From: Patescibacteria group bacterium
GTDB lineage: Bacteria; Patescibacteriota; Patescibacteriia; Magasanikbacterales; JBBTQS01
Direction of reading: 5' to 3'
Assembly (NCBI GenBank): GCA_038065555.1
Contig: JBBTQS010000003.1
Location: 92,266 to 152,372 of the forward strand
DNA: 60,107 bases
Part shown: positions 1-59,065 of the stretch, one piece after another
Layout: each line of letters starts with the position of its first letter
Position numbering within the stretch: the stretch's first letter is position 1
Made by a program: the position numbers and the translations under genes
The notes under the pieces: model-generated
Told to the model about the DNA's origin: nothing
Seen by the model: only the letters and a program-made list of their open reading frames with translations
Databases searched by the model: none

Positions 1-1
1 T

Positions 2-211
2 AGATTCATGATCAGCCACTGCAACGACTCCATGGTCGACCTCGCTTCACACAAAGACCGCCACGAACACATCGGCGACGGCAAAATCGGCACCGAAGGA
101 TTCCGCGCCCTCCTCAACGAACCACGCCTCAAGCACGTCAACTGGTACCTCGAAACCGAATATGACAAAGTCGTCGCCGACATCGAGCTCCTCAAAAAGC
201 TCCGAGGCTAA
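2..211 (+). CDS. nfo: Endonuclease IV (AP endonuclease family 2), C-terminal fragment; N-terminus lies outside the window
   Basis: The frame is open from the window edge. The C-terminal HIGDGKIGTEGFRALLNEPRL...WYLET resembles the conserved end of Nfo. Confidence 0.65.
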   Translation, partial: RFMISHCNDSMVDLASHKDRHEHIGDGKIGTEGFRALLNEPRLKHVNWYLETEYDKVVADIELLKKLRG

Positions 212-428
212 GCGCATCACAGTTCACGCGCACCCAGGCTCAAGCAAGGAAGTAATCACCGAACGTGCACCCAACACGTTCGACGTCTGGGTCCGTGCTT
301 CAGCAGTAGACAACAAAGCAAACAACGCGATTGTGCGCGTTGTAGCAACTCATTTTGCTGTAGCCCCATCTCGAGTCTCGCTTCTTCGGGGCGCGAACAC
401 AAAAACAAAAATTCTCGCTATTTCTTAA
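162..428 (+). CDS. DUF167 (YggU-like) family protein
   Basis: Core ITVHAHPGSSKE...VRASAVDNKANNAIVRVVATHFAVAPSRVSLLRGANTKTKILAI fits the DUF167 pattern. The only canonical start is ATG 162, which overlaps nfo by 50 nt, so the Ser-rich N-extension is uncertain. Confidence 0.65.
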   Translation: MTKSSPTSSSSKSSEAKRITVHAHPGSSKEVITERAPNTFDVWVRASAVDNKANNAIVRVVATHFAVAPSRVSLLRGANTKTKILAIS

Positions 429-431
429 CAC

Positions 432-692
432 TTACGGCAAATCCACTCCACCAGCGCTCCAAGGATTACACCGCACAATCCGCCAAGCCGTCTTCACTGA
501 TCCGCGTACAAATCCATACTTCCCATACGCCTCATACCCATACTGCGAGCAAGAAGGCGTAAATTTACAATAACCATGAGGATATTTGGCGCGTAACCAG
601 CTATGATCAGGCGACAGCGTTCGTTGGTAGAGCCGAATCAACAACTGCGCCAGCCGCCTCGGAATGTGCCAAATTACACGAGTTATCCACAT
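432..692 (-). CDS. yidD: Membrane protein insertion efficiency factor YidD
   Basis: [11 protein letters not shown]...[14 protein letters not shown]...[14 protein letters not shown] matches the YidD signature. It sits adjacent to rnpA as in most bacteria. Confidence 0.85.
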
Positions 693-698
693 ACTTAT

Positions 699-1037
699 TC
701 ACACCTGTGTATAACCCAATGTCCGAAGTACATCCTCCCGAATCTCCTGGAATTTCGCTAATTTCGCAGCAGGATTCACAAGAATAACCACAGATTTTCC
801 ACTGATAGCCTTCTTCGTGATCGCTTCACGCAACACTTCACGAACCCGACGTTTGATCCGATTACGCCCCACCGCCGTCTTCTCCGTCTTTTTGCTCACG
901 ACAACCGTCACGAGCGTCCGACCTTCTGCGTTTTTCGCTATTTTTGCACGTACAAACTTGCCTGACCGGGACGAACCCTTCATCAGGACCTCTTTCACCT
1001 CAGTTTCGTGGCGCAACCGGTTGCGTGCCGGGTACAT
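699..1037 (-). CDS. rnpA: Ribonuclease P protein component
   Basis: 112-aa basic protein with ...VVVSKKTEKTAVGRNRIKRRVREVLRE... and rpmH-rnpA-yidD synteny. Confidence 0.85.
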   Translation of the reverse strand: MYPARNRLRHETEVKEVLMKGSSRSGKFVRAKIAKNAEGRTLVTVVVSKKTEKTAVGRNRIKRRVREVLREAITKKAISGKSVVILVNPAAKLAKFQEIREDVLRTLGYTQV

Positions 1038-1105
1038 AGCAGCAGTCCTTATAAATCAAAGAGGCCGTCGAAAAACGACAGCCGCTCGAAATTGCAACAA
1101 AAATC

Positions 1106-1255
1106 TTAGCGCTCGCTCGAAACAGTGAGTTTCTTGCGACCCTTCGCGCGACGGCGAGCCAACACCTGGCGACCATTCTTGGTCTCCATGCGCTTGCTGA
1201 ACCCGTGCGTCTTAGCGCGCTTACGCTTTTTCGGCTGGTACGTTCTCTTTGGCAT
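1106..1255 (-). CDS. rpmH: 50S ribosomal protein L34
   Basis: [45 protein letters not shown]. The internal ATG at 1253..1255 is preferred over the longer track ORF ending at 1330. Confidence 0.95.
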
Positions 1256-1322
1256 ACGATTCCTTAACGACGCAACTCTATCATGCCAGCCGATTTTACA
1301 CAAGCCCCGAACCCGAGTAGGA

Positions 1323-1413
1323 TAATCCACACACAGAGCCCACCCCTGTGCACAGTCTATGCACTACCTGTGCACTGATTGTCCCCTGTGGATACCTTTC
1401 CATTTTACCCACA
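1323..1413. promoter_or_regulatory. DnaA-box-like cluster in the rpmH-dnaA intergenic region
   Basis: One-mismatch variants of TTATCCACA: TAATCCACA (1323..1331), TGTGGATAC (1387..1395, reverse orientation) and TTACCCACA (1405..1413). Repeated CCTGTGCAC motifs lie between them. Confidence 0.5.
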
Positions 1414-1468
1414 GGTGGTACACTGATCACACATTGCATCTCGGTCACGTTTTTGAACCATTTGGAGT

Positions 1469-2902
1469 ATGACACACCAGCAAATTTGGGACGCCGTGCT
1501 CGCGGAATTTGAGCTGTCTGTCAGCCGTGCGAACTTCATTACATGGTTCCACAATACTGGAATTAGCCACTTCGAGAAGGGCAACGTTATCATCACCGTC
1601 CCAACTGCTTTTGCAAAGACGTGGCTCGAAAAGAAATACCATTCCCAGATTCTCCACGCCATCGAGCGCATCAGCGGACTCGGCGTCCAAAAAATCTACT
1701 ATAAGGTAGAGCAGATCAATCCAGCAGCACGAAGTGCACAACCACAGACCGTTCCAACGCAGTCTTCTGGAGCTACAACACCAGTACAAGCTGCGTCAGC
1801 ACAGACCCCAGCAACTGTGAACCCACAACAGCAACAGCCTGTCCGCTCTGCGTCTGACCCCATCCCCACTGTCAATGAATTCGGCCTCAATCCTCGATAT
1901 GTTTTCGAGAGCTTCATTGTAGGTAAGACCAACGAACTTGCTCACGCTGCAGCGCAAGCAGTCTCGAGCCGCCCAGGTGTTGCGTACAACCCACTCTTCA
2001 TCTACGGAGGTGTAGGATTGGGCAAAACTCACCTACTCCAAGCAATCGGTAACGAGCTCCTTCGCACACAAAAGATCAAGAATTGCATCTATGTCACCTG
2101 TGAGAAGTTCACCAACGACTTCCTGAACTCCGTGAGAACTGGTAGTGCAAAGGAGTTCAAGAACCGTTATCGCAACGTGGATCTCCTCATGATCGACGAC
2201 ATCCAGTTCATTGCGGGCAAGGAACGAACCCAAGAAGAGTTCTTCCATACATTCAACGAATTGCACCAAGCCAACAAGCAGATCATCCTCTCATCAGACC
2301 GCCCGCCAAAGGCGATTTCTCTCGAAGAACGTCTCAAATCTCGCTTCGAATGGGGAATGATCGTCGACGTCGCTCCACCTGACCTTGAGACACGTATCGC
2401 GATTCTCGAGTCCAAGTGCAACGATCGTCAATATAGAGTAAGTAAAGAATTGCTCGCCATCATCGCAACATTGGTGCAAAATAACATTCGCGAGCTCGAA
2501 GGCGCACTCAACAAGATCATGGCGTGGCACGAACTCAAGAACATCACTCCCACAGAGGATTCTATTCGTGGTATTCTGTCGACGGTTGAGACCACCGGCA
2601 CTCGCCAACCCAAGTCTGCAAAGGCGATTATCGAAATCGTCGCGGATTTCTACGCGGTGCCGCTCAATGAGATCCTCGGCAGCTCCCGTGAGAAGCGCCT
2701 CGCATTCCCTCGCCAAATCACCATGTATATTCTTCGTGAAGAGCTCAAGCTCTCCTATCCATCCATTGGCGAAGAGCTCGGCGGCCGCGATCACACCACC
2801 GCGATGCATGCACATAACAAGATATCCACAGAGTTGAAGAATAATCTCCAGCTCAAACAGGAGATCGAAGGGATCAAAGCACGGTTAACAACCGAGGGAT
2901 AA
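1469..2902 (+). CDS. dnaA: Chromosomal replication initiator protein DnaA
   Basis: 477 aa with Walker A GGVGLGKTHLL, an AAA+ core and the C-terminal DNA-binding region ...LGGRDHTTAMHA. A Q/P-rich linker follows domain I, and a GGAG RBS precedes ATG 1469. Confidence 0.97.
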   Translation: MTHQQIWDAVLAEFELSVSRANFITWFHNTGISHFEKGNVIITVPTAFAKTWLEKKYHSQILHAIERISGLGVQKIYYKVEQINPAARSAQPQTVPTQSSGATTPVQAASAQTPATVNPQQQQPVRSASDPIPTVNEFGLNPRYVFESFIVGKTNELAHAAAQAVSSRPGVAYNPLFIYGGVGLGKTHLLQAIGNELLRTQKIKNCIYVTCEKFTNDFLNSVRTGSAKEFKNRYRNVDLLMIDDIQFIAGKERTQEEFFHTFNELHQANKQIILSSDRPPKAISLEERLKSRFEWGMIVDVAPPDLETRIAILESKCNDRQYRVSKELLAIIATLVQNNIRELEGALNKIMAWHELKNITPTEDSIRGILSTVETTGTRQPKSAKAIIEIVADFYAVPLNEILGSSREKRLAFPRQITMYILREELKLSYPSIGEELGGRDHTTAMHAHNKISTELKNNLQLKQEIEGIKARLTTEG

Positions 2903-2943
2903 GTAGGGGGACACAACCGTGGTAACTTGGGTACAGATTTTCC

Positions 2944-3134
2944 CAATCCACAGGCACACCCACTTTGTCCCAAAATCCACACACAGGACCCTGCTGTTCG
3001 TCCCCATATTGTCCCCTGTTGTGCCCGGTCAAATTCAATCAGTTTCTCGTTCACTTCGCGCGTTCCTAGCACGTTATCCCCTTCGTCCACAGGTACTACT
3101 GCTACTACTGCCTTTAAACACATAAATACAGAAT
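2944..3134. promoter_or_regulatory. Candidate oriC segment (DnaA boxes plus an AT-richer stretch) between dnaA and dnaN
   Basis: CAATCCACA (2944..2952), AAATCCACA (2973..2981) and further TCCACA cores, followed by AT-richer sequence ...cctttaaacacataaatacagaat just before dnaN. Confidence 0.45.
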
Positions 3135-4250
3135 ATGAAATTCACCTGCACCAAAGACAACCTCGTTCATGCACTTCAGTTCGTTGGCGGAGCTGCAGGC
3201 AAGAATATTAATTTGCCTATACTGAATAACGTGTTGATAAGTACTGAGGAACGCACAGTACGCTTTATCACCACCAACTTAGAGATGGCAATCAAGACAA
3301 ATGTTCGAGGAGTAGTCGAACAAGAAGGCAAATTCACTGTTCCAGCAAAGACTCTCTCAGAATATATTCAGCTTGTATCGAGCGACCAAGTCACACTTTC
3401 TCTAGAAGACAACGAAATTGTCATTCAAACAGGCAAAAGCAAAACAAAAATCAAAGGCAACCCAGCAGATGAATTCCCTATTTTGCCAACAGTTGATGTT
3501 CGCGCTCGATATGTAGTAAATGCACGTGAACTTCGCACTGCACTCTCTCGCGTACTCTTCGCGTGCTCACGCTCAGAGACACGACCAGAACTTTCTGGTG
3601 TTTTCATGCAGTTCAACAAGACACCTAACACCCTGACACTTGCTGCAACCGACAGCTATCGCCTCTCCGAGGCACAAATTCCACTTCTTGGTGCGCAAGA
3701 AGGCGCTGTGCAGGCGATTATTCCACAGCGCACACTTTCCGAAGTCTTGCGCATCACTGTTGGTCATCCAGATGACACACTTATCAATGTTATCTTCGAC
3801 GAAACACAGGTTGTTTTCGAGATTGGTGAAGTAACACTGTCTACGCGCAAGATCGATGGAAGATATCCCGACTATGCACAGATTATCCCCACCCAGTACA
3901 AAACTCGTGCATATTTCTCCACAGAAGCACTCGCAAAAGAAGTAAAAGCAGCAAGTATTTTTGCAAGCCAAGGAGTGAACGCGGTAATCATGGAGTGCAA
4001 GCCTGCAGAGTCTTCATTGAGCATCTCCTCAACGAGCACACAATTGGGTGAGCACGCATCATCACTCACTGTCGAAGCAACAGGCGAGGATGGTGGTGCA
4101 CTTCTCAACTATCGCTACGTTCTCGATGGTATTAGCGCACTCCAAGCCACCGAAGGAGAAATCTGGTTCCTCTCCACCACCTCTCCAGTAGTCTTCAAAC
4201 CAAAAGACAGCCAAGGATTTCTCTACATCATCATGCCTATCCGCCAGTAA
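3135..4250 (+). CDS. dnaN: DNA polymerase III beta subunit (sliding clamp)
   Basis: 371 aa starting MKFTCTKDNL.... Length fits a three-domain clamp, and it lies immediately downstream of dnaA. Confidence 0.95.
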   Translation: MKFTCTKDNLVHALQFVGGAAGKNINLPILNNVLISTEERTVRFITTNLEMAIKTNVRGVVEQEGKFTVPAKTLSEYIQLVSSDQVTLSLEDNEIVIQTGKSKTKIKGNPADEFPILPTVDVRARYVVNARELRTALSRVLFACSRSETRPELSGVFMQFNKTPNTLTLAATDSYRLSEAQIPLLGAQEGAVQAIIPQRTLSEVLRITVGHPDDTLINVIFDETQVVFEIGEVTLSTRKIDGRYPDYAQIIPTQYKTRAYFSTEALAKEVKAASIFASQGVNAVIMECKPAESSLSISSTSTQLGEHASSLTVEATGEDGGALLNYRYVLDGISALQATEGEIWFLSTTSPVVFKPKDSQGFLYIIMPIRQ

Positions 4251-4265
4251 GTCGCTGGAGAACGC

Positions 4266-4299
4266 AACAGCCGCCCTCTATGGGCGGCTGTTTTGATTT
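4266..4299. terminator. Bidirectional hairpin terminator between dnaN and the PBP gene
   Basis: AACAGCCGCCC-tctat-GGGCGGCTGTT followed by TTTGATTT. Confidence 0.6.
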
Positions 4300-4327
4300 C
4301 AAGAACTGGATTTCGCACCAGGATGCG

Positions 4328-6919
4328 CTAGGGCGCGTTGAGAGTGAATGTAACTGGTGCTGACTCACCTCGGTTACCAACATCGTCGTAGGCGCGAGCC
4401 TTGAGCGTATGAGTGCCATTAGAGAATCCTGTGAGGTCGATCGTGAGTGCAAATGGGAATGTGAACGTCGAACCCATTTCACGATCATCGATGAAATACG
4501 CCACACGACTAATCCCTCTTGGTGCCGCAGCATTCACATCTGCAGTGATACTGCGCGAGGTTGCCACGGTGTTATTCGATGGTGTTGTCACTGTAACACT
4601 TGGTTGTAATTCTTTGGTGTGTACATCGTCGTACTCCGTTGGCGGCGCATCAAATGAAATCGTGCTTGTGGAAGTCTGGCGAATTTTGTTGATCCAATCT
4701 TGCACACCTGTCTCCCATGCAATGTATTGTGGATCAGCAGCGGGATTTGTTGGTACTGGTCCACGTGGATCATTCTTGTCCACGAAATGGAGAATGTCAT
4801 GTGCTTGCACATATGTGCGTTCTTCCACGAGTTCGAGTGGTGTTGCATCAGTGGCGAGTTTGCCAGAGAATTTGTCGACCTTCACTACTACACGTCCGCC
4901 ATTAGAACCACGCAGCACAGGCTTGCTCGCTGTATTTTCTGGTGGTGTCGCAAATGCAACGACAGGTTGCTTATCGAGTGCACGTCGCATATACGCATTC
5001 CAAATCGGACCCGCAGCAATGGATCCGCCCGCAGATTTCATCGGTGTGTTGTCGTTGTTACCACTCCATACACCTGTCACAAGTTGTGGAACATATCCCA
5101 TGGTCCATCCATCGCGATAGTCGTTGGTGGTACCGGTTTTTGCAGCAGATGGTCGGCCCGGCAGCACGAGACTGGAGTTGTTACCAAATACATACGCGCG
5201 CGCTGCATTGTCCGACAGAACATTGGTGATGAGGTGTGCATTGTCAGGATCCAGAACCTTTTTGGATTGAGGTTTCCAGTTGTACAGTTCATTGCCTTGT
5301 GGATCCTTCACATTGAGGATGAATGTCGGTGCGTTGTACACGCCCTCGTTAGCAAGCGCAGCGTATGCTGCGGTGTGCTCGAGGAGAATCACTTCGCCGC
5401 CGCCCAATACCATCGACAGCCCCAATCGACTCTTGTCGCTGAGTGTTGTGTATCCGAACCGCTGCGCGAATTCCACCATTGAATCAATGCTCACGAGATA
5501 CAACATTTTCACCGCAGGAATATTGAGTGATCCCTGCAACGCAGAGCGCACTGTGATAGGTCCCCGCTCTTTGCCATCGTAATTTTTTGGAATGTAACTC
5601 TGTCCAGGACGTGGATCGAAATTGGTGATGGTGTCATAGAGCACTGTCTCTGCTGTATACCCCTTCTCAAATCCAGCTGTGAACACAAATGGCTTGAACG
5701 ACGATCCTGGTTGGCGTGCTCGCAACGCCACATTCGTATTCGGTTCGAAGACACAATTCTTACCAGCGGTACATCCAGCGGGTTCAGATTTGCCGAAGTA
5801 ATCCTTGCTGCCGATCATGGTGAGCACTTGTCCGGTCTTTGGATCCATGGAGACTAGCGCTGCATTACCCGCGTTATACTTCGTTCCATTGTCCTTGAGG
5901 AATTTCGTGATCTCTTCTTGTGCAATTTTGTATTTGTCGTAATCGAGCGCGGTGATGACACGAAGTCCACCTGTCTCTACTAATTTCTCACCAAATTGCT
6001 TTTCGAGAAGTTCTTTCACATAGAGCACATAGTGTGGCGCCTCAATTCCTGTGAGACGGTTGCGCAAATTGAGTGGCTCGTTCTGCGCACTATCCATTTC
6101 TTGCTCGGTAATGAATCCCTCCTCCTTCATTCGGTACAGCACGAAGTCGCGTCGATTCTTGAGCAGGTCGTGATTGTTCAGGAATACACTTGGTCGCTGC
6201 ACAATACCTGCAAGTACTGCACTCTCAGAGAGGTTGAGGTCTTTACTACTCTTGCCGAAATAGCTTTGCGCTGCTGATTCAATACCGTAGTTGGTGGACC
6301 CGTACGGAATTTCGTTGAAGTAGAGCTTGAGGATCTCTTGTTTGCTGTATTTGCGCTCGAGCTGCATCGAGAGGATAGCCTCTTTGATTTTGCGGTTGAG
6401 TCCTGCTAGGCCGCCGCTCTCATTTCCTACGATGGCGTTCTTTACGAACTGCTGGGTGAGCGTCGAGGCACCTCCGCGACCCGTCTTGAGATGGAGAATG
6501 TCCGAGACACCCGCACGGATGATAGACGTAACACGAATACCGTTGTGCTCGAAGAATTTGGCGTCCTCAACAGCAACAGTCGCATTGATGACAGATTGAG
6601 GAAGGTCCGAAATCTCAACAATCGTGCGCTTGCGATCCAAATAAATCTCATAGAGCAGATGCTCCCCTGTTCGGTCATAGATCTTGGTGCTCTCTGCAAC
6701 GTGGCGGTTGTGCAAATTGTTAGGATCCGGCAAATCCCGGCTAATCCAGGCAACGTAGAGAGTCAAAAGTGCAAATCCAATGACACCAGCCACAAGACAA
6801 CCGAGGAAAATCTTCTTCCATGGAATCTGGCGGCGCTTCTTGGGTGGCTTTGGGCTCGCGGGCGATGTGTCTGCTGCAGTAGTGTGTGTATGGCGGGCAA
6901 CTGGCATAAACATTGACAA
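4328..6919 (-). CDS. ponA: Penicillin-binding protein 1A (bifunctional transglycosylase/transpeptidase) with extra C-terminal Ig-like tail
   Basis: N-terminal TM anchor; GT51 motifs (EDAKFFEHNGI, RKIKEAILSMQLE); transpeptidase SSFK, SLN and KTGTT. The track start is TTG; ATG alternatives end at 6913 and 6907. Confidence 0.9.
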   Translation of the reverse strand: MSMFMPVARHTHTTAADTSPASPKPPKKRRQIPWKKIFLGCLVAGVIGFALLTLYVAWISRDLPDPNNLHNRHVAESTKIYDRTGEHLLYEIYLDRKRTIVEISDLPQSVINATVAVEDAKFFEHNGIRVTSIIRAGVSDILHLKTGRGGASTLTQQFVKNAIVGNESGGLAGLNRKIKEAILSMQLERKYSKQEILKLYFNEIPYGSTNYGIESAAQSYFGKSSKDLNLSESAVLAGIVQRPSVFLNNHDLLKNRRDFVLYRMKEEGFITEQEMDSAQNEPLNLRNRLTGIEAPHYVLYVKELLEKQFGEKLVETGGLRVITALDYDKYKIAQEEITKFLKDNGTKYNAGNAALVSMDPKTGQVLTMIGSKDYFGKSEPAGCTAGKNCVFEPNTNVALRARQPGSSFKPFVFTAGFEKGYTAETVLYDTITNFDPRPGQSYIPKNYDGKERGPITVRSALQGSLNIPAVKMLYLVSIDSMVEFAQRFGYTTLSDKSRLGLSMVLGGGEVILLEHTAAYAALANEGVYNAPTFILNVKDPQGNELYNWKPQSKKVLDPDNAHLITNVLSDNAARAYVFGNNSSLVLPGRPSAAKTGTTNDYRDGWTMGYVPQLVTGVWSGNNDNTPMKSAGGSIAAGPIWNAYMRRALDKQPVVAFATPPENTASKPVLRGSNGGRVVVKVDKFSGKLATDATPLELVEERTYVQAHDILHFVDKNDPRGPVPTNPAADPQYIAWETGVQDWINKIRQTSTSTISFDAPPTEYDDVHTKELQPSVTVTTPSNNTVATSRSITADVNAAAPRGISRVAYFIDDREMGSTFTFPFALTIDLTGFSNGTHTLKARAYDDVGNRGESAPVTFTLNAP

Positions 6920-6964: not shown

Positions 6965-7480
6965 ATGACGAAAACCACTTCTTCGCTAGTTCGGACCGTG
7001 GAGCGCGCCATTGCAGTGACTTTTGCTGCAATTCTAGCTATTACGCCTATTATGACCCCTGCGGCGGCGTATGGCGCAGGATTTGCTGATTTCCTTGGGG
7101 TATCATACACCTCTTCTGGCCTTTTGACACGTGGATTGGCCACATCTGATGATGTTCGTGAGCCCCGCTCTACCAAATGGGTTGTGGCTTCGGCATACAC
7201 CAGTGAGCCTCGCCAGACCGACGGAACCCCGTACGTGACGGCCAATGGTAGCTTCGTCTATGACGGACTTATCGCTGCAAATGGCTATCCATTTGGAACC
7301 CTCGCTACACTCGATGCGTTCCCTGGCAAGGTATTTCGTGTAGATGATCGTATGAATTCGCGCTATGGCGCTGATCGTATCGATGTCTGGATGACGGATA
7401 TCAAGGAAGCACGCCAGTTCGGTATGAAGCGCGTAAAGATGGAAATCATCGGTCGCCAGCATTCGATGGTAAAGCGTTAA
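6965..7480 (+). CDS. Secreted 3D-domain (MltA/RlpA-like) cell-wall-associated protein
   Basis: N-terminal hydrophobic signal. The C-terminal TSEPRQTDGTPYVTANG...FRVDDRMNSRY...RIDVWM resembles the Asp-rich 3D domain. Confidence 0.65.
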   Translation: MTKTTSSLVRTVERAIAVTFAAILAITPIMTPAAAYGAGFADFLGVSYTSSGLLTRGLATSDDVREPRSTKWVVASAYTSEPRQTDGTPYVTANGSFVYDGLIAANGYPFGTLATLDAFPGKVFRVDDRMNSRYGADRIDVWMTDIKEARQFGMKRVKMEIIGRQHSMVKR

Positions 7481-7494
7481 ATCCCTCGTGACTC

Positions 7495-7521
7495 AATAGC
7501 CGCCCCAAAAGGGCGGCTATT
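7495..7521. terminator. Hairpin terminator after the 3D-domain gene
   Basis: AATAGCCGCCC-caaaa-GGGCGGCTATT followed by T-rich sequence. Confidence 0.55.
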
Positions 7522-7535
7522 GTTGTATATCTGTT

Positions 7536-7610
<75 letters not shown>

Positions 7611-7644
7611 AATTGCCTGCCGAGTGTAACACCTGATTGGGTCA

Positions 7645-7673
7645 TTGACAAGGTTTTGATGGTTTTGTAGTAT
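7645..7673 (+). promoter_or_regulatory. Sigma70-like promoter of the GC-rich orphan gene
   Basis: TTGACA (7645..7650), a 17-nt spacer, then TAGTAT (7668..7673). The ~100-nt leader contains the hairpins GCCCAttcgggTGGGC and CCAGGATagtagATCCTGG. Confidence 0.5.
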
Positions 7674-7781
7674 ACCCGCCAGTCTGTGCGGTTGTACGCC
7701 CATTCGGGTGGGCAATTGTGCAGCATAACCAGAGCTCCAGGATAGTAGATCCTGGGGACGACAAGAAGAGGAAGAGATTCG

Positions 7782-8840
7782 ATGAAGGTGCAGAATGCTC
7801 GTATCACCCGGGGCAACCTCGGTGACTTCAATCGCTTCAATGGGGTCAAGCCCGGCCAGATGCTCGCGGTCGAGTTCGAGAACATCGCGAAGTCCAAGCG
7901 GATCGATCTCATGGTGGCGATCGCATCGATCGAGGAAGGGGCCAACAGCGCGGAGCTCAACTTCGCCGACGAGAACAGCAACAACAAGACCTACCTGGGT
8001 CGCATGGCCTACGACGGCAATGGACATGTGCTCGTCCAGCTCGGGCTCGATCTGGACCTGGGTCTGGAGCAGACGCGTCAGGCGCTCAGCGCGCTCAGCG
8101 GTGCGATCATCCAGAACAACGGCACGGACCAGGCGTTCGACACGCAACTGTGCGGGCTCACCAATCCCCGTCGCACCCACTACGCCCTCATCACCAAGGG
8201 CAACCGGGGTGACTGGAGCGACGCGCACGTCACGGCACCCACCACGGTGCGTGGCACGGCGCTCAACTTCGCCATGTTCGACCCGACGTACCGCAGCGAT
8301 GACGGCAGCAGCCGTATCACCGGCTTCTCCAGGCTCACTGCTGTGGCCATGACGTACGGCGGCAAGGACGGTAACGAGGTCCTGAATCGCAGCGACAACG
8401 TGCGTACGAAGCTGCTGAACGCCGACACCGAGACGAGCGCGGAACGACAGCTCCAGCTCCTGGGGATGTCGCGATTCGAGAACCTCGGTGACGGGTATGC
8501 TGCCGTTGTCACGGTGCGCAACCCCAACGGCACAACTGGCATCTACGGCACGAAGGTCATCCTGGGCAACGACGGGCTGATCGAGTTCAAGAACGCGACC
8601 CAGCTGGTCAACACCTACGCCGAAGACGCTCTCATCGAGCCGACGGGCGTCATCGAGGACAAGACCTTCGGCGGCGGAGTCGGCTTCATCCGGCATCGGA
8701 CCGAGACCGACACCAAGGCCAAGGCGTTCATCCGGATGCCCACCGAGTTCGGTGGACGGGAGATCGACCTGGGCAAGTCGAAGGTCGTCGCGGCTCACCT
8801 CGCTACGATCACGAACGCGGTGCGCGGCATCAAGGGCTGA
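7782..8840 (+). CDS. Hypothetical protein, 352 aa, strongly GC3-rich (foreign-looking codon usage)
   Basis: AAGAGGAAGAG RBS before ATG 7782 and a terminator downstream. No signal peptide, TM segment or catalytic motif recognised. The antisense strand is also open, as expected for high-GC DNA. Confidence 0.8.
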   Translation: MKVQNARITRGNLGDFNRFNGVKPGQMLAVEFENIAKSKRIDLMVAIASIEEGANSAELNFADENSNNKTYLGRMAYDGNGHVLVQLGLDLDLGLEQTRQALSALSGAIIQNNGTDQAFDTQLCGLTNPRRTHYALITKGNRGDWSDAHVTAPTTVRGTALNFAMFDPTYRSDDGSSRITGFSRLTAVAMTYGGKDGNEVLNRSDNVRTKLLNADTETSAERQLQLLGMSRFENLGDGYAAVVTVRNPNGTTGIYGTKVILGNDGLIEFKNATQLVNTYAEDALIEPTGVIEDKTFGGGVGFIRHRTETDTKAKAFIRMPTEFGGREIDLGKSKVVAAHLATITNAVRGIKG

Positions 8841-8912
8841 CCCAGCCCACGCCGCCGAGCACACAACGTGTGTCTCGGTACAGTTGAGAACTGGTTACCA
8901 GTGATCAACTGC

Positions 8913-8963
8913 AACGGCTGCTCTTCTTCCCACAAGGAAGCAAGGGCAGCCGTTTTTCATTTT
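8913..8963 (+). terminator. Rho-independent terminator (third of three consecutive hairpins)
   Basis: AACGGCTGC...GCAGCCGTT with inner CTTCC/GGAAG pairing, followed by TTTTTCATTTT. Earlier hairpins lie at 8855..8878 and 8881..8911. Confidence 0.65.
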
Positions 8964-8992
8964 GGGGACCCGTGGTAAGGTATGGATATTCT

Positions 8993-11674
8993 ATGGCCAA
9001 AACATCCCCCACAACTCCAGTATTTGTCATTATTGACGGTAACGCCATCATCCATCGCGCGTATCATGCGGTTCCACCATTGAGCACCAAGAGTGGCATG
9101 GCGGTGAATGCGGTGTATGGTTTTGCCAATATTATGTTGCGAGTGCTCAAGGAATTGCAGCCAACGCACATGGCAGTGACATTCGACCTTGCTGGGCCGA
9201 CATTTCGTGATGAACTCTCTTCGACCTACAAGGCGACACGTGTTGAGGCTGATCCGGAGCTCTATGCGCAGATCCCAGTGATCCATGAGTTGGTAGAAGC
9301 GCTTGCAATGCCGATTGTAACAAAGGCGGGGTTTGAGGCCGACGATTGTATTGGGACGTTGGTGGAACGGATCTCGCTCGCAGATGGAGATTTGCGAACG
9401 CTTATTGTGACGGGTGATATGGATACGCTGCAGTTGGTGACTGATCGCGTGAACGTGTACACGATGCGCAAGAGCATGAATGATACCGTGATCTTCGATA
9501 TTGAAGCAGTGGCAAAGCGATATCCAGGGCTCACACCGGCTCAGGTAATTGAGTACAAGGCGCTTGCGGGTGATCACAGTGACAACATTCCTGGTGTGCG
9601 CGGTATTGGTGAGAAGACAGCGATTGCTATTCTCCAGAAGTTCTCCAACCTCGAGGCGCTCTACGCAGCAGTAGATGCGAATGAGGATGGATTGCCAGCA
9701 GCGCAGCACAAGAAGTTGGTGGAGGGTCGTGAGAGCGCATTTTTGTCACGTCAGCTTGCAACGATTCGACGTGATGTTCCTATCGAAGTGTCGCTTGCAG
9801 ATTTTGTGCGTCGGCCGGTGGACGAGACGAAGTTGGTGGAGTTGTTGCAGCGGTGTGAATTCACATCGCTCATCGCACGCATTCCAGGACTTGCGGCGCG
9901 TATGCCAAGTGCGGGTAGCAAGGCTACTCGTCAGGGTGAGGTTGCGCCATCAGCTGTTATGACGCTTGCAACAGAAGAAGAAGTGAAGACGCTCATAGAG
10001 CGGCTCGCTGGTGAGCCTTGGGTGGTTCTGCGCACGCACGCAACAGGAGTCATAGCACTTGATGCAGAGTTGTATGGTGTCGGACTTGCGATTGCATCTG
10101 GTCAGTCGTGGTATCTCCCAACCACAATCAAGAACTGGCAGGATGTGTTGCGCATGGCTGTGCTCTATGTGGGTCATGATTGCAAACGCGACATCGGTAT
10201 TTTGCTGGCACGCGGGTTTGCAGTTCCTGGAAGAATATTTGATGTGATGGTTGGGTCGTATCTACTGCACTCGGAGAGCAATCACGAGTTGCAGTCTCTA
10301 GCGCTCAAATATTTGGGTGAGCGACTCGAGGAAGAGACGCAGGGGCAGCTCTTTGGCAAGGATCAGACGGTGTTGATGCAGGAGGTTTCTGTTATTGCTC
10401 GTGTGGCTGCAGCAATTCGCACAGAACTCGACGAAACAAAACAGTGGAAGTTGTATGAGCGTATTGAGGAACCGCTCTTGTGCGTGCTTGCACGTATGGA
10501 GCTCGCGGGTATTGCGATCGATGTGCCACTCTTGAAACAACTCGCTGTAGAAACAGACGCTGCAATTGCTACGTGCACAGCAACAATTCACCAGGCAGCG
10601 GGTAAGGAGTTCAATGTAAGTTCCAACAACCAGTTGCGTGATGTTCTGTTCGATACATTGCAGTTGCCAACGTACGCAATCAAGAAAGGAAAGACTGGAT
10701 ATTCCACCGCAGCATCTGAGCTCGAGAAATTGCGTGGGTTGCATCCCATCATCGAGTCGATTGAATCATATCGTGAGTTAACGAAGCTCAAGACAACATA
10801 CATTGATGTGTTGCCTACACTCACCCACCCACGCGATCATCGCATTCACACAACGTTCAATCAGACCGTCGCTGCTACTGGTCGCCTCTCGTCTACTGAT
10901 CCGAATGTGCAGAACATTCCTATTCGCACCGAGGCTGGCAAGCGTGTGCGCAACGCATTCATTGCAGAACCGGGTAACGTCCTTGTTGCAGCCGACTACT
11001 CACAAATTGAGTTGCGCATCGTTGCTTCCCTTGCTGAGGATCCAGAAATGATTCGCATCTTTGAGGCAGGTGAAGACATTCACCGTTCGACTGCTGCACG
11101 TATTCATGGCGTCGAGTTGAGTGAAGTAACGCATGAGATGCGTCGCAGCGCAAAAGAAATTAACTTCGGCGTGCTGTACGGCATGGGAGCATTTGGGCTC
11201 GCATCTCGTACAGGTATTACGCAGCACGAGGCCCAGGATTTCATCAATCGATACTTCGAAGTATTTGCTGGAGTGCGTAAGTATCTGGATGATACGATTG
11301 CGACTGCGAAGCGCGAGGGGTATGTGGAGACGGCATTTGGCCGCCGCCGCTATATGCCAGAGATGAACTCAGGTAATTACCAGATTCGCGCTTCTGCAGA
11401 GCGAATGGCAGTGAATCATCCGGTGCAAGGGACTGCAGCAGACCTCATGAAGCTCGCGATGATTGAGGTAGACAAGTGTATTCAGAATGATCCGAAGACG
11501 AAGGCTCGTATGCTCCTGCAAGTACACGACGAATTGATTCTCGAGGTTCCGGAGGCAGAAGTTGTAGATTGGGAATCTCGCGTGAAGGTGGCGATGGAAG
11601 GAGTGATGACATTGCGAGTTCCAGTGCTCGTTGAAGTTGGTCACGGACATTCTTGGGGCGAAACAAAGGCGTAA
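8993..11674 (+). CDS. polA: DNA polymerase I
   Basis: 5'-3' exonuclease N-domain (VFVIIDGNAIIHRAYHA); polymerase motifs DYSQIELRI (A), RRSAKEINFGVLYG (B) and QVHDEL (C). A GTG at 8972 is an alternative start. Confidence 0.95.
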   Translation: MAKTSPTTPVFVIIDGNAIIHRAYHAVPPLSTKSGMAVNAVYGFANIMLRVLKELQPTHMAVTFDLAGPTFRDELSSTYKATRVEADPELYAQIPVIHELVEALAMPIVTKAGFEADDCIGTLVERISLADGDLRTLIVTGDMDTLQLVTDRVNVYTMRKSMNDTVIFDIEAVAKRYPGLTPAQVIEYKALAGDHSDNIPGVRGIGEKTAIAILQKFSNLEALYAAVDANEDGLPAAQHKKLVEGRESAFLSRQLATIRRDVPIEVSLADFVRRPVDETKLVELLQRCEFTSLIARIPGLAARMPSAGSKATRQGEVAPSAVMTLATEEEVKTLIERLAGEPWVVLRTHATGVIALDAELYGVGLAIASGQSWYLPTTIKNWQDVLRMAVLYVGHDCKRDIGILLARGFAVPGRIFDVMVGSYLLHSESNHELQSLALKYLGERLEEETQGQLFGKDQTVLMQEVSVIARVAAAIRTELDETKQWKLYERIEEPLLCVLARMELAGIAIDVPLLKQLAVETDAAIATCTATIHQAAGKEFNVSSNNQLRDVLFDTLQLPTYAIKKGKTGYSTAASELEKLRGLHPIIESIESYRELTKLKTTYIDVLPTLTHPRDHRIHTTFNQTVAATGRLSSTDPNVQNIPIRTEAGKRVRNAFIAEPGNVLVAADYSQIELRIVASLAEDPEMIRIFEAGEDIHRSTAARIHGVELSEVTHEMRRSAKEINFGVLYGMGAFGLASRTGITQHEAQDFINRYFEVFAGVRKYLDDTIATAKREGYVETAFGRRRYMPEMNSGNYQIRASAERMAVNHPVQGTAADLMKLAMIEVDKCIQNDPKTKARMLLQVHDELILEVPEAEVVDWESRVKVAMEGVMTLRVPVLVEVGHGHSWGETKA

Positions 11675-19703: not shown

Positions 19704-20192
19704 CTACTTCAGCGCGGCCCGGAGTGAGCGCTCCATTCGCTCGACACTCTCCTCGGTGAAGTAGAGGAAGTAGCAGTCTCCGCGCAGGAACTTCATGATG
19801 GGGTTGGACTCAAATGCACGTCGGTACTGGAGCAGTGGCGGGGTGTCGGCGACCACATGCTCTCTGCCACCAGTTGGGTTCATTCGGCCCGCGTTCCAGA
19901 GAACGATGGTCGTATGGTAGGTTCGAGCGAAGTCACTGAATCTGATTGGTTCCCATCCCGTGTTGCGCGCGACTGCGTAATTGAACATGAACCGTGCGAG
20001 CTCCTCAGACTCGGCATTGTAGAACGTGCCCTCGAATAGAAGATCTGACCGCTCCACCCCCTTTCCTCGGAGCATTTGGGTTCTGAGCGCCTCGAGTGCG
20101 GACGGTCTGGGGAGCTCGGGTTTGTCCTGGGTGAGCGGGAAGTACTTCACGGATGCGAAGATTCTCGGGTGTTCATCGTGAATGAACGACAT
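19704..20192 (-). CDS. Hypothetical protein, 162 aa, GC3-rich
   Basis: AAGAGAGG RBS, its own promoter and its own terminator; no recognisable motif. Confidence 0.7.
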   Translation of the reverse strand: MSFIHDEHPRIFASVKYFPLTQDKPELPRPSALEALRTQMLRGKGVERSDLLFEGTFYNAESEELARFMFNYAVARNTGWEPIRFSDFARTYHTTIVLWNAGRMNPTGGREHVVADTPPLLQYRRAFESNPIMKFLRGDCYFLYFTEESVERMERSLRAALK

Positions 20193-24568: not shown

Positions 24569-24626
24569 TACTGCAACATTGCGTGACAAGATGTGGTGTC
24601 GTACAATACGGACAAAGATCGATTGT

Positions 24627-25592
24627 ATGGGGGAAAAGAAGTCGGCGTTGTCGCGGTATATCCGCGAGTTCCTGGAATATTGTGAAATTGAGCGTGGGCG
24701 GTCACCTCGGACCGTGCGTAATTATGATTTTTATTTGTCGCGGTTCGTAGAGTGCGTGGGGGACAAGGATCCGGGCGACATTACGGGCGATATGGTGCGC
24801 ACGTATCGGTTGTGGCTCAACCGACTAGTTGATGTACATGGTGAGCCGCTCAAGAAGAACACACAGAATTATCATTTGATTGCGTTGCGGTCCTTCCTGA
24901 AGTATTTGTCGAAGCGCGATGTGATGACATTGCGGTCGGAAAAGATTGAGTTGGCGAAGATGCCGGATCGTGAAGTGTCGTTTCTCGACGGTAATGACTT
25001 GGAGCGTCTGTTGTCTGCGCCTATTAAGGATGCGCATGGGAATATCATGGATCAAGGGCTCACACTGACGCAGTTGCGTGATAAGGCGATTGTGGAATTA
25101 CTCTTTTGCAGTGGGTTGCGTGTGTCTGAACTCGCGCATCTGACGAAAGAGAGTGTGAATCTCAAGCGTGATGAGTTCACGATTCGTGGTAAGGGTGGGA
25201 AGTCGCGTATTGCGTTCATTTCTGAGCATGCGCGGTTCTGGCTCAAGCGGTATCTCGATGCGCGCAAGGATATGAATCCGTTTCTTTTTGTTTCGCATGA
25301 TCGTGCGCAAAAGGCGAAGACGCGCGCGGACAAAGATGCGTTGCCTGTGTCGGAGCGTTCGATCCAGCGCATTATCGAGAACATGGCGCGTGCAGCGGGG
25401 ATTACCAAGCCGGTGACGCCGCATACGCTGCGCCATTCGTACGCGACAGATTTGTTGCGCAATGGCGCAGACATTCGATCTGTTCAGCACATGTTGGGTC
25501 ACAGCTCGATCACGACAACGCAGATCTACACGCACATTACCGATGCGGGATTGCGTGACGTGCATAAGAAATTCCATCGCAAGTCCAAGTAA
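24627..25592 (+). CDS. xerC: Tyrosine recombinase XerC/XerD
   Basis: N-terminal core-binding domain, then catalytic R...HTLRHSYAT...GHSSITTTQIYTH. Confidence 0.9.
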   Translation: MGEKKSALSRYIREFLEYCEIERGRSPRTVRNYDFYLSRFVECVGDKDPGDITGDMVRTYRLWLNRLVDVHGEPLKKNTQNYHLIALRSFLKYLSKRDVMTLRSEKIELAKMPDREVSFLDGNDLERLLSAPIKDAHGNIMDQGLTLTQLRDKAIVELLFCSGLRVSELAHLTKESVNLKRDEFTIRGKGGKSRIAFISEHARFWLKRYLDARKDMNPFLFVSHDRAQKAKTRADKDALPVSERSIQRIIENMARAAGITKPVTPHTLRHSYATDLLRNGADIRSVQHMLGHSSITTTQIYTHITDAGLRDVHKKFHRKSK

Positions 25593-26508: not shown

Positions 26509-26580
26509 GCCCCTGTAGTTCAATGGATAGAACACGGGACTTCTAAGCCTGATATCTAAGTTCGATTCTTAGCGGGGGCA
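26509..26580 (+). tRNA. tRNA-Arg (TCT), no encoded CCA
   Basis: GCCCCTG / GTTC-AATGGATA-GAAC / anticodon loop CTTCTAA / CTAAG-TTCGATT-CTTAG / CGGGGGC-A. There is one A-G mismatch at the base of the anticodon stem. Confidence 0.8.
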
Positions 26581-26730
26581 CATTCCTTATTATTTCCGAG
26601 GGTACAACATCGATCCCCCTAACCGGGGTATCGTGTCTCGTTCTCGGTCAGCCGGATGCGTATCAACGCCTCACGGAATTTTTTGCTTACCGGCTGGCCT
26701 CCGAAAGCCCCTCGGAAATAATAAGGAATG
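26581..26730 (+). repeat. 150-nt element closed by a perfect 22-bp inverted repeat, directly abutting the tRNA-Arg 3' end
   Basis: CATTCCTTATTATTTCCGAGGG (26581..26602) pairs with CCCTCGGAAATAATAAGGAATG (26709..26730). Internal helices are CGATCCCC/GGGGTATCG and GGTCAGCCGG/CCGGCTGGCC. Confidence 0.5.
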
Positions 26731-58636: not shown

Positions 58637-59065
58637 TCAGTCCCGGGGGAATTCCTCGAAGACTGGTGGGAGACCTGACTTGCCTCCGCCGATGAGACCA
58701 GGCGTCCAGTACACAGCGCCTCGCTTCGAGCACAGGGCGATGATCTCATCTGCTGTGTACACGTGCGCCCGGAGGCTCGAGTGTGGGTCTGGCTCCTGCA
58801 TGCTGAAGGCGGTTCCGGTTTCGGCGTGAACCAGCATGAGCACTTTCGAGACCCGAGCGTCCCGCTTTTCGAGCACCTCCCAGACGTGTCTGAGCAATGC
58901 TCGATCCCGGACCAGAACCGGTGAATGTGTGTCGCTGGCCAGGGCGGTGAAGGCTCCTGTGGTCTGAGTTACGAGCTCGAGGAAGGTGCACTCGGCAATT
59001 TCCCAGCCCGCGAGATCTCGTCCGTGTAGGCTGCCCAGAGAATAGAGTTCGGTGACGGCTTGCAT
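58637..59065 (-). CDS. Hypothetical protein, 142 aa, GC3-rich
   Basis: AAGGTGAG RBS before the ATG; no family recognised. Confidence 0.55.
   Translation of the reverse strand: MQAVTELYSLGSLHGRDLAGWEIAECTFLELVTQTTGAFTALASDTHSPVLVRDRALLRHVWEVLEKRDARVSKVLMLVHAETGTAFSMQEPDPHSSLRAHVYTADEIIALCSKRGAVYWTPGLIGGGKSGLPPVFEEFPRD

Follow-up and report, generated by a model that had tools for sequence, protein, structure and literature searches.

Within the 60,107-nucleotide stretch of Patescibacteria contig JBBTQS010000003.1 analyzed here (the window), a 352-aa orphan gene at 7782..8840 on the + strand, lying between tRNA-Cys and polA, carries G or C at the third position of most of its codons. This extreme third-position GC content (GC3) is a conserved property of a small protein family and is confined to codon third positions. 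Taken as a whole, the gene is best explained as clade-restricted, dispensable and fast-evolving, with its G/C third positions kept by selection on the message, an account that we hold tentatively and at a little under an even chance. Judged from three sequences, such selection would be favoured over biased gene conversion and over foreign origin, because the bias ends at the start and stop codons and the amino-acid composition has not been dragged along.

The open reading frame (ORF) begins with ATG and has GC contents of 0.59, 0.43 and 0.86 at the first (GC1), second (GC2) and third codon positions, in a genome of 51% GC. The highest GC3 among the other window ORFs of at least 150 aa is 0.72, and against 56 gene-like ORFs (mean 0.548, standard deviation 0.069) the orphan stands at z = 4.5. 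The composition jump at the gene is abrupt, and GC3 is then even along its length (0.80-0.91 per 44-codon block). At third positions, A makes up 3%, T 10%, C 52% and G 34%, compared with about 21-27% each in 25 other window genes. Fourteen codons, listed as A/T-ending, are unused: ATT, ATA, AAA, TTT, TTA, TTG, CTT, CTA, CCA, CCT, TCA, TCT, AGT and GTA. An earlier note on this DNA had called the gene a GC3 outlier beside flanking genes that prefer GCA, ACA, CTC and CGT. Both points are borne out by the window codon counts, in which background genes favour GCA, ACA, CTC and, for Arg, CGT/CGC, and the orphan is a genuine compositional outlier. Literature searches on codon-usage anomalies in Patescibacteria yielded nothing of relevance. 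The next-highest GC3 values in the window belong to two ORFs on the - strand, 19704-20192 (0.72) and 58637-59065 (0.69), both without a Pfam match and far under the orphan.

A phmmer search over 1.84e9 representative proteins returned just two homologues, P0002 (E 1e-25, 29% identity across the full length) and P0003 (E 3e-20). Both lie on short Logan contigs that start with the end of a gene for a 171-aa protein and a tRNA-Cys on the - strand, and one of these contigs (L081) runs past the homologue into polA. The family is known from one slot only, in related Patescibacteria-like genomes of ~50% GC. A word-index search of 5.8e9 clusters recovered the orphan itself only, and neither a profile word-index search nor scans with the conserved promoter-leader DNA pattern yielded further members. 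None of the three members matched a Pfam, PHROG or NCBIfam entry, even at E 1-5, and PDB sequences, including a profile search, gave nothing either. No relative was found by tblastn against phage and plasmid records, or by peptide patterns in IMG/VR viral and JGI metagenome contigs. PADLOC models returned 0 matches for 3/3 members, and a known anti-phage defence system was rejected on this ground. The earlier statement that the protein fits no family stands, with two homologues as its only relatives.

Comparison of the three members settles the coding status of the locus. The +1 frame scores best in every pairwise six-frame comparison. Identity among members is 0.51-0.56 at codon position 2 and 0.45-0.49 at position 1, where chance would give about 0.25-0.29, and it is at chance level at position 3. 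This pattern indicates a protein-coding sequence with saturated synonymous sites, and ORF 7782..8840 is a true protein-coding gene. That both strands are open, as had been pointed out before, is correct: the antisense ORF 7590..8864 spans 424 aa. It is a shadow ORF and a by-product of high GC3, since it extends across the leader and into the tRNA gene, does not stay open in a homologue and runs in a frame among the least conserved. A large structured non-coding RNA or a known cis-regulatory leader was rejected as well, given the strong codon periodicity, the coding-type conservation and no Rfam match at E<=1 besides the tRNA.

High GC3 is shared by the whole family. Its members have GC3 of 0.86 (window), 0.80 and 0.96 (homologues), with GC1 of 0.58-0.62 and GC2 of 0.43-0.44, beside neighbour genes with GC3 of 0.41-0.53. 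Their proteins are 28-34% identical, compared with about 85% for PolA and 77-84% for the 171-aa protein; the orphan is evolving far more quickly than the genes beside it. Four-fold sites of polA are 0.33-0.42 identical between genomes, with 0.26 expected by chance, which is near saturation and corresponds to roughly at least 1.4 substitutions per site. A passively inherited foreign composition should therefore have decayed, and one member still stands at 0.96. The rest of the gene does not share the anomaly. Frequencies of Gly, Ala, Arg and Pro (GARP) are 0.27-0.30 and those of Phe, Tyr, Met, Ile, Asn and Lys (FYMINK) 0.23-0.26, against resident means of 0.274 and 0.232 and against 0.349 and 0.166 in 175 reference ORFs from high-GC loci. 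Placed within these 175 ORFs, the members fall in the lowest 5-12% for GC1 and in the top 0-7% for FYMINK. With Asn at 7.7% and Pro at 2.0%, the orphan is not actinobacterial-looking. The GC of the leaders is 0.50-0.56 (0.50 in the window gene) and that of the 3' untranslated region (UTR) 0.54. Because GC1, GC2, amino-acid composition and both UTRs are resident-like, the bias is limited to third positions.

The slot is fixed. Its order is the same in all three members, namely 171-aa gene, tRNA-Cys, orphan and polA. In the window, the left anchor is tRNA-Cys (GCA) at 7536..7610 on the - strand (ARAGORN; Rfam tRNA, 69.9 bits) and the right anchor is polA at 8993..11674 on the + strand. The orphan is monocistronic between them, in agreement with the earlier report of no partner genes. 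The same tRNA-Cys adjoins the homologues in L081 and L082 and the empty sites in two further loci, L001 and L084. L001 has the closest PolA (86% identity) and is fully syntenic with the window through dnaA, dnaN, PBP1A, the 171-aa gene, tRNA-Cys and polA, with just 93 bp from tRNA to polA; L084 is the second empty site. Because two close relatives have an empty slot, the gene is dispensable. The left flank of L082 is 92% identical to that of L001, which shows that near relatives can differ in having the slot filled or empty. When synteny was followed through homologues of the 171-aa neighbour, the orphan proved absent from more distant relatives. Its left and right junctions are weakly alike, also when compared with the empty site, a likeness that could stem from a target duplication now decayed or from a deletion between short repeats in the L001/L084 lineage. 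Since three lineages are occupied and the one empty sub-lineage is sister to an occupied one, a single loss in that sub-lineage is the more parsimonious account.

Two back-to-back promoters lie at 7623-7673, one for the orphan and one for tRNA-Cys. The predicted orphan promoter, TTGACA-17-TAGTAT (7645..7673, + strand), matches 10/12 consensus positions, and the TG-extended tRNA-Cys promoter, TTGTCA-17-TACACT (7623..7651, - strand), faces away from it; the two -35 hexamers share 5 bp within the palindrome TTGACAA. The tRNA-Cys promoter is kept in all five related loci, with the same motif in L001, L084, L081 and L082, and TTGACAAG and AGTGTA are invariant in alignment A3. Occupied sites always place the -10 box 17 nt from the -35 box, as TAGTAT in the window, TACTGT in L081 and TAGTAT in L082. 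This -10 box is found only there; empty sites keep TTGACAAGGT and then continue into the polA upstream sequence. As the orphan -35 box is present in genomes without the gene, it is resident sequence. The earlier description of the signals as host-style thus holds in part: the near-consensus promoter is there, but its -35 box is the partner of the resident tRNA-Cys -35 box and occurs in empty sites too.

The other expression signals named in the earlier note are also present. The 5' leader of about 100 nt (7680..7781, + strand) folds into two hairpins, a long one at the 5' end (7682-7724) and a second at 7735-7757, with a folding energy of -39.5 kcal/mol (z -3.3); the homologous leaders form a similar pair (z -2.2 and -1.6). 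The block CCAGTCTGYGC, the 5' strand of the terminal hairpin, is conserved in 3/3 members, and the promoter and leader together follow the motif TTGACAAG-N14-GTANTNTAC-N3-CCAGTCTGYGC. No Rfam family matched the leader. A strong ribosome-binding site, the Shine-Dalgarno (SD) sequence AAGAGGAAGAG, lies at 7766-7776 on the + strand. Three consecutive hairpins follow the stop codon at 8854-8879, 8881-8911 and 8913-8954 (element 8854..8963, + strand), and the last leads into TTTTTCATTTT as an intrinsic terminator; the region 8838-8965 folds at -60 kcal/mol (z -7.0). The L081 homologue keeps the terminator hairpin and T-run and lacks the first two hairpins (8855-8912), which are not repeated elsewhere in the window. 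The T-run aligns with empty-site sequence, GTCGTTTTTTATTTT in L001 and GTCGTTTTTCAATTT in L084, where the consensus facing it is GTCGTTTTT(T/C)A(T/A)TTT. Read from the sequence, such signals look like those of a stable, monocistronic mRNA with strong expression. Bacterial mRNAs that are stable and highly expressed, with 5' stabilizers of the ompA type, carry 5'-terminal stem-loops and strong terminators. The orphan resembles them in having a near-consensus promoter, a hairpin where the mRNA is predicted to begin, a strong SD and a series of 3' hairpins. It differs in a coding sequence recoded to G/C-ending codons that resident highly expressed genes shun.

These observations can be assembled into a proposed history. 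A small clade-restricted family would occupy one fixed slot, downstream of the divergent tRNA-Cys promoter and upstream of polA, and would have passed down the clade by vertical inheritance, with loss in one sub-lineage. Its near-consensus promoter would reuse the resident -35 box. Selection on the translated message, and not donor mutational bias, would hold the synonymous sites at G/C. What is selected may be an mRNA that is rich in GC, strongly folded, resistant to nucleases and poor in AU-rich cleavage sites, or else decoding that does without A/U-ending codons. The sharper proposition, that a single fast-evolving lineage-specific gene has been kept G/C at nearly all synonymous sites by selection on the translated region only, is conceivable but more doubtful than the account as a whole. 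A more extreme version, with codon usage tuned to expression inside a high-GC partner cell, finds nothing here that supports it.

Several familiar forms of selection were considered and rejected. Trigger factor and S20 of this clade prefer C-ending two-fold codons, CTC, CGC and GGC, like the orphan. However, they leave CGG, CTG, CCG and GGG almost unused (0.01-0.03), use GCG at 0.15 and prefer CCA and GCA, whereas the orphan uses G-ending codons freely and avoids CCA and GCA (r about 0.3 against trigger factor/S20). Ordinary translational optimization fails on these G-ending four-fold codons. Accuracy-driven codon selection fails because GC3 is the same at invariant and variable columns. The native mRNAs fold at -0.41 to -0.46 kcal/mol per nt, compared with -0.31 to -0.33 for resident-codon recodings of the same proteins. 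Selection for mRNA structure beyond composition was nevertheless rejected, since only 1/3 members is clearly apart from its synonymous shuffles; composition, and not a specific fold, appears to matter.

A number of points weigh against selection on the message. The family comprises three members, so every comparative statement has low power. The orphan's codon choice departs from the resident highly expressed pattern and resembles that of a generic high-GC genome, and GC3 is no higher at invariant than at variable residues. Native folding is just marginally below that of synonymous shuffles in 2/3 members (z -1.25, -0.64 and -2.86). Being under functional constraint, the UTRs may be poor indicators of neutral composition, and a high-GC donor pool may have gone unsampled. 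The function of the protein, which is read from its context, is the least secure part.

The strongest competing explanation, although an unlikely one, is repeated or recent horizontal transfer into a tRNA-Cys hot spot, with host Actinomycetota, their phages or their plasmids as high-GC donors, so that the members would be diverged and unameliorated alleles. The overall high-GC codon style, including the CGG, CTG, CCG and GCG avoided by resident highly expressed genes, would suit such an origin, as would presence and absence among near relatives, the adjoining tRNA gene and the weak mutual likeness of junctions and empty site, which could be a decayed target duplication. Against this, no homologue outside the slot emerged from the protein, cluster, phage, plasmid, viral and metagenome collections searched, and none of the homologues lies in Actinomycetota, phages or plasmids. 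The -10 box, leader and terminator are conserved among the three members at resident GC, and amino-acid composition, GC1 and GC2 are resident-like. The three proteins are about equally distant from one another, and so are the PolA proteins of their hosts, a pattern compatible with vertical descent. It is the 5' (promoter) side of tRNA-Cys that the insert faces, not the 3' end usual for integrases, and the nearest tyrosine recombinase is 17 kb off. No convincing direct repeat flanks the insert, and no att duplication of the tRNA 3' end was found. The earlier proposal of transfer from a high-GC host or its phage is not upheld by these data: donor homologues are missing, GC3 has been kept at 0.80-0.96 past saturation, UTR GC is 0.50-0.56, and promoter and leader are conserved.

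Lawrence and Ochman are said to have argued in 1997 that horizontally acquired atypical DNA is expected to ameliorate. Atypical genomic islets beside tRNA genes share with the orphan a local GC/GC3 anomaly, an adjoining tRNA, presence/absence polymorphism and an orphan product. The orphan differs from them in that its anomaly affects third positions only, with resident-like UTRs and amino acids, and has been kept in three lineages across near-saturating synonymous divergence with no donor relatives in databases. It also has neither an integrase nor a tRNA 3' att duplication and sits on the tRNA promoter side. An integron cassette was rejected, as the orphan has its own -10 box and leader and would be a single cassette with no adjacent integrase. 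The same applies to an integron attC site: the terminal hairpin reads AAC...GTT in the window, with core sites off the consensus RYYYAAC ... GTTRRRY, and L081 has GAC.

GC-biased gene conversion, or local hyper-recombination, is less likely again. Under it, alleles of a hypervariable locus would be exchanged through their conserved flanks and repaired with a bias. Extreme allelic divergence between conserved flanks would agree with such a process, as would a GC3 that is equal at conserved and variable residues, as for a non-translational force, and a plain G-or-C preference in place of a tRNA-matched set. The spatial pattern argues otherwise. The bias ends at the start and stop codons, with GC of 0.50-0.56 in the leader and 0.54 in the 3' UTR, and polA, 150 bp off, has GC3 of 0.41-0.53. 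A fast-evolving protein under GC-ward fixation should also drift to GARP residues, and no such drift is seen. Reported GC-biased gene conversion in bacteria moves GC3 by a few percent, not by 30-40 points.

Hypervariable loci such as surface-antigen, receptor and defence hot spots offer a related comparison. They have in common with the orphan a fixed slot between conserved flanks (about 85% identity for PolA), alleles with identities of about 30% and empty slots in some strains. The orphan differs in being a single gene without a signal peptide or a PADLOC match, and no template repeat of a diversity-generating retroelement (DGR) and no paralogous silent copies occur in the window. A DGR target was rejected because no cassette repeat longer than 21 nt recurs elsewhere in the window and no long internal repeat is present.

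The earlier suggestion of a capsid or shell protein concerns the product and not its codons. An HK97-like capsid or an encapsulin-type shell, either a domesticated phage structural gene or a nanocompartment, is improbable. The size (about 340-350 aa), the Thr/Asn/Gly-rich composition, the putatively strong expression signals and a modelled beta-rich fold with one long central helix (95-111) would be compatible with it. For the three members, though, PHROGs, Pfam and NCBIfam gave no match, the PDB profile search was empty, and no cargo, protease or portal partner gene is present. AlphaFold2 (AF2) reached a predicted local distance difference test score (pLDDT) of 35 from the single sequence and of 48.6, with a predicted template-modelling score of 0.58, from the three-sequence alignment, and both are of low confidence. 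In the resulting model, which is beta-rich, a series of beta strands precedes a helix at residues 95-111, and there is also a C-terminal helix. Foldseek of this model against PDB and BFVD gave beta-propellers as top matches, with TM <=0.31, and no HK97 or encapsulin chain in the top 50 of either; at a pLDDT of 48.6, this result is not counted as a refutation. The capsid idea is accordingly left unsupported on a model too poor to refute it. HK97-fold capsids and encapsulins share with the orphan a similar length and, as far as the model can be trusted, a long helix between beta-rich segments, whereas the orphan has no sequence match, no fold match with this weak model and no partner genes.

The weakest alternative, a chimeric assembly, a non-coding GC-rich insert or a real gene in antisense ORF 7590..8864, draws on the open strands and the sharp composition jump and can be set aside as very improbable, because three independent assemblies share the architecture, the +1 frame leads in all pairs with per-position identity typical of coding sequence, and the antisense ORF overlaps the tRNA gene and is broken in L081. 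A chimera appears excluded without read mapping, since two independent assemblies join the homologous high-GC3 gene to the same resident flanks, with both junctions present in L081 and the left one in L082.

The neighbourhood of the slot adds further observations. The true polA start is probably ATG 8993 and not GTG 8972, because the L001 and L084 polA genes begin MAKSTTPTPVFV; Pfam domains were identified in the L084 polA orthologue. No obvious SD precedes polA, and an extended -10-like motif, TGGTAAGGT, lies at 8973-8981 and also in L081 and L084. In occupied genomes, polA stands behind the orphan terminator and may depend on read-through or on a short-leader promoter. The conserved 171-aa protein (6965-7480) includes a hydrophobic segment in its N-terminal part, and neither Pfam nor NCBIfam matched it. 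Identity to its relatives is 76-98% within the clade and 40-55% among small-genome bacteria further away, and its gene always adjoins PBP1A in close relatives. Between this gene and the 3' end of tRNA-Cys, a perfect 12-bp stem, CAATAGCCGCCC / GGGCGGCTATTG, spans 7494-7522. L001 and L084 have a 12-pair hairpin with a related stem sequence there, and a bidirectional terminator is probable.

On a wider scale, window positions 1-6000 form the replication-origin region, with rnpA and yidD-like ORFs, dnaA (1469-2902) and dnaN (3135-4250). The cumulative GC skew has its minimum at about 4-6 kb, and the orphan, about 5 kb away from dnaA, is on what becomes the leading strand. A tyrosine recombinase of the XerC/D type (24579-25592; Phage_integrase plus SAM-like N-terminal domain) adjoins tRNA-Arg (TCT) at 26509-26581 and is unlinked to the orphan. 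The PolA of the window organism is 49% and 47% identical to that of two Patescibacteria metagenome-assembled genomes and 42-44% identical to that of Saccharibacteria, and by this similarity the organism falls with the Patescibacteria. The L001 contig (CAZVGV010000001.1) is titled 'uncultured Gammaproteobacteria bacterium', a label that is probably wrong because the contig is syntenic with the window, its PolA is 86% identical and the next PolA relatives are the Patescibacteria genomes.

As for the protein itself, no signal peptide or transmembrane segment is visible in the sequences, in keeping with the earlier note, which had also seen no nameable catalytic motif; nor is a Cys-rich motif. The orphan protein is rich in Thr, Asn and Gly and has only one Cys. 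Invariant residues are mainly Gly, Asp, Arg, Ala and Phe (AFD..L.GL, D.S.A..TA, FD, RI.G and FI..R), with no recognizable catalytic motif among them. DNA repeats spaced 387 and 366 nt prompted the idea of an internal three-fold protein repeat, which was rejected because segment alignments were not significant. At its most speculative, and leaning on the low-confidence model, the product would be a soluble beta-rich protein, probably an abundant one. Equally speculatively, the strong expression signals, monocistronic unit, presence/absence variation, location about 5 kb from dnaA and a rate of evolution several-fold above that of adjoining genes point away from housekeeping and towards an antagonistic or strain-specific interaction, in which the other party may be a phage, a host cell or a competitor.

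A local rise in GC3 is commonly taken as a sign of recent horizontal transfer. In this case, a spike common to three known members at the same locus is synonymous-only and outlasts saturation, so that the standard transfer inference fails and a gene-specific force is at work. If selection keeps nearly all synonymous sites of one gene at G/C, this would amount to a gene-specific mRNA or decoding constraint not described before, such as a message independent of the decoders of A/U-ending codons or resistant to AU-directed RNases. The rule that compositional islands mean horizontal transfer would then also have a clear counter-example. The locus further provides a protein family without detectable relatives outside its slot or a fold assignment. 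Its dispensable, fast-evolving and apparently expression-equipped profile is that expected of a factor in epibiont-host or phage conflict. Should the force prove to be selection on the message, the gene would offer a natural test case for codon and GC control of mRNA fate in reduced-genome Patescibacteria.

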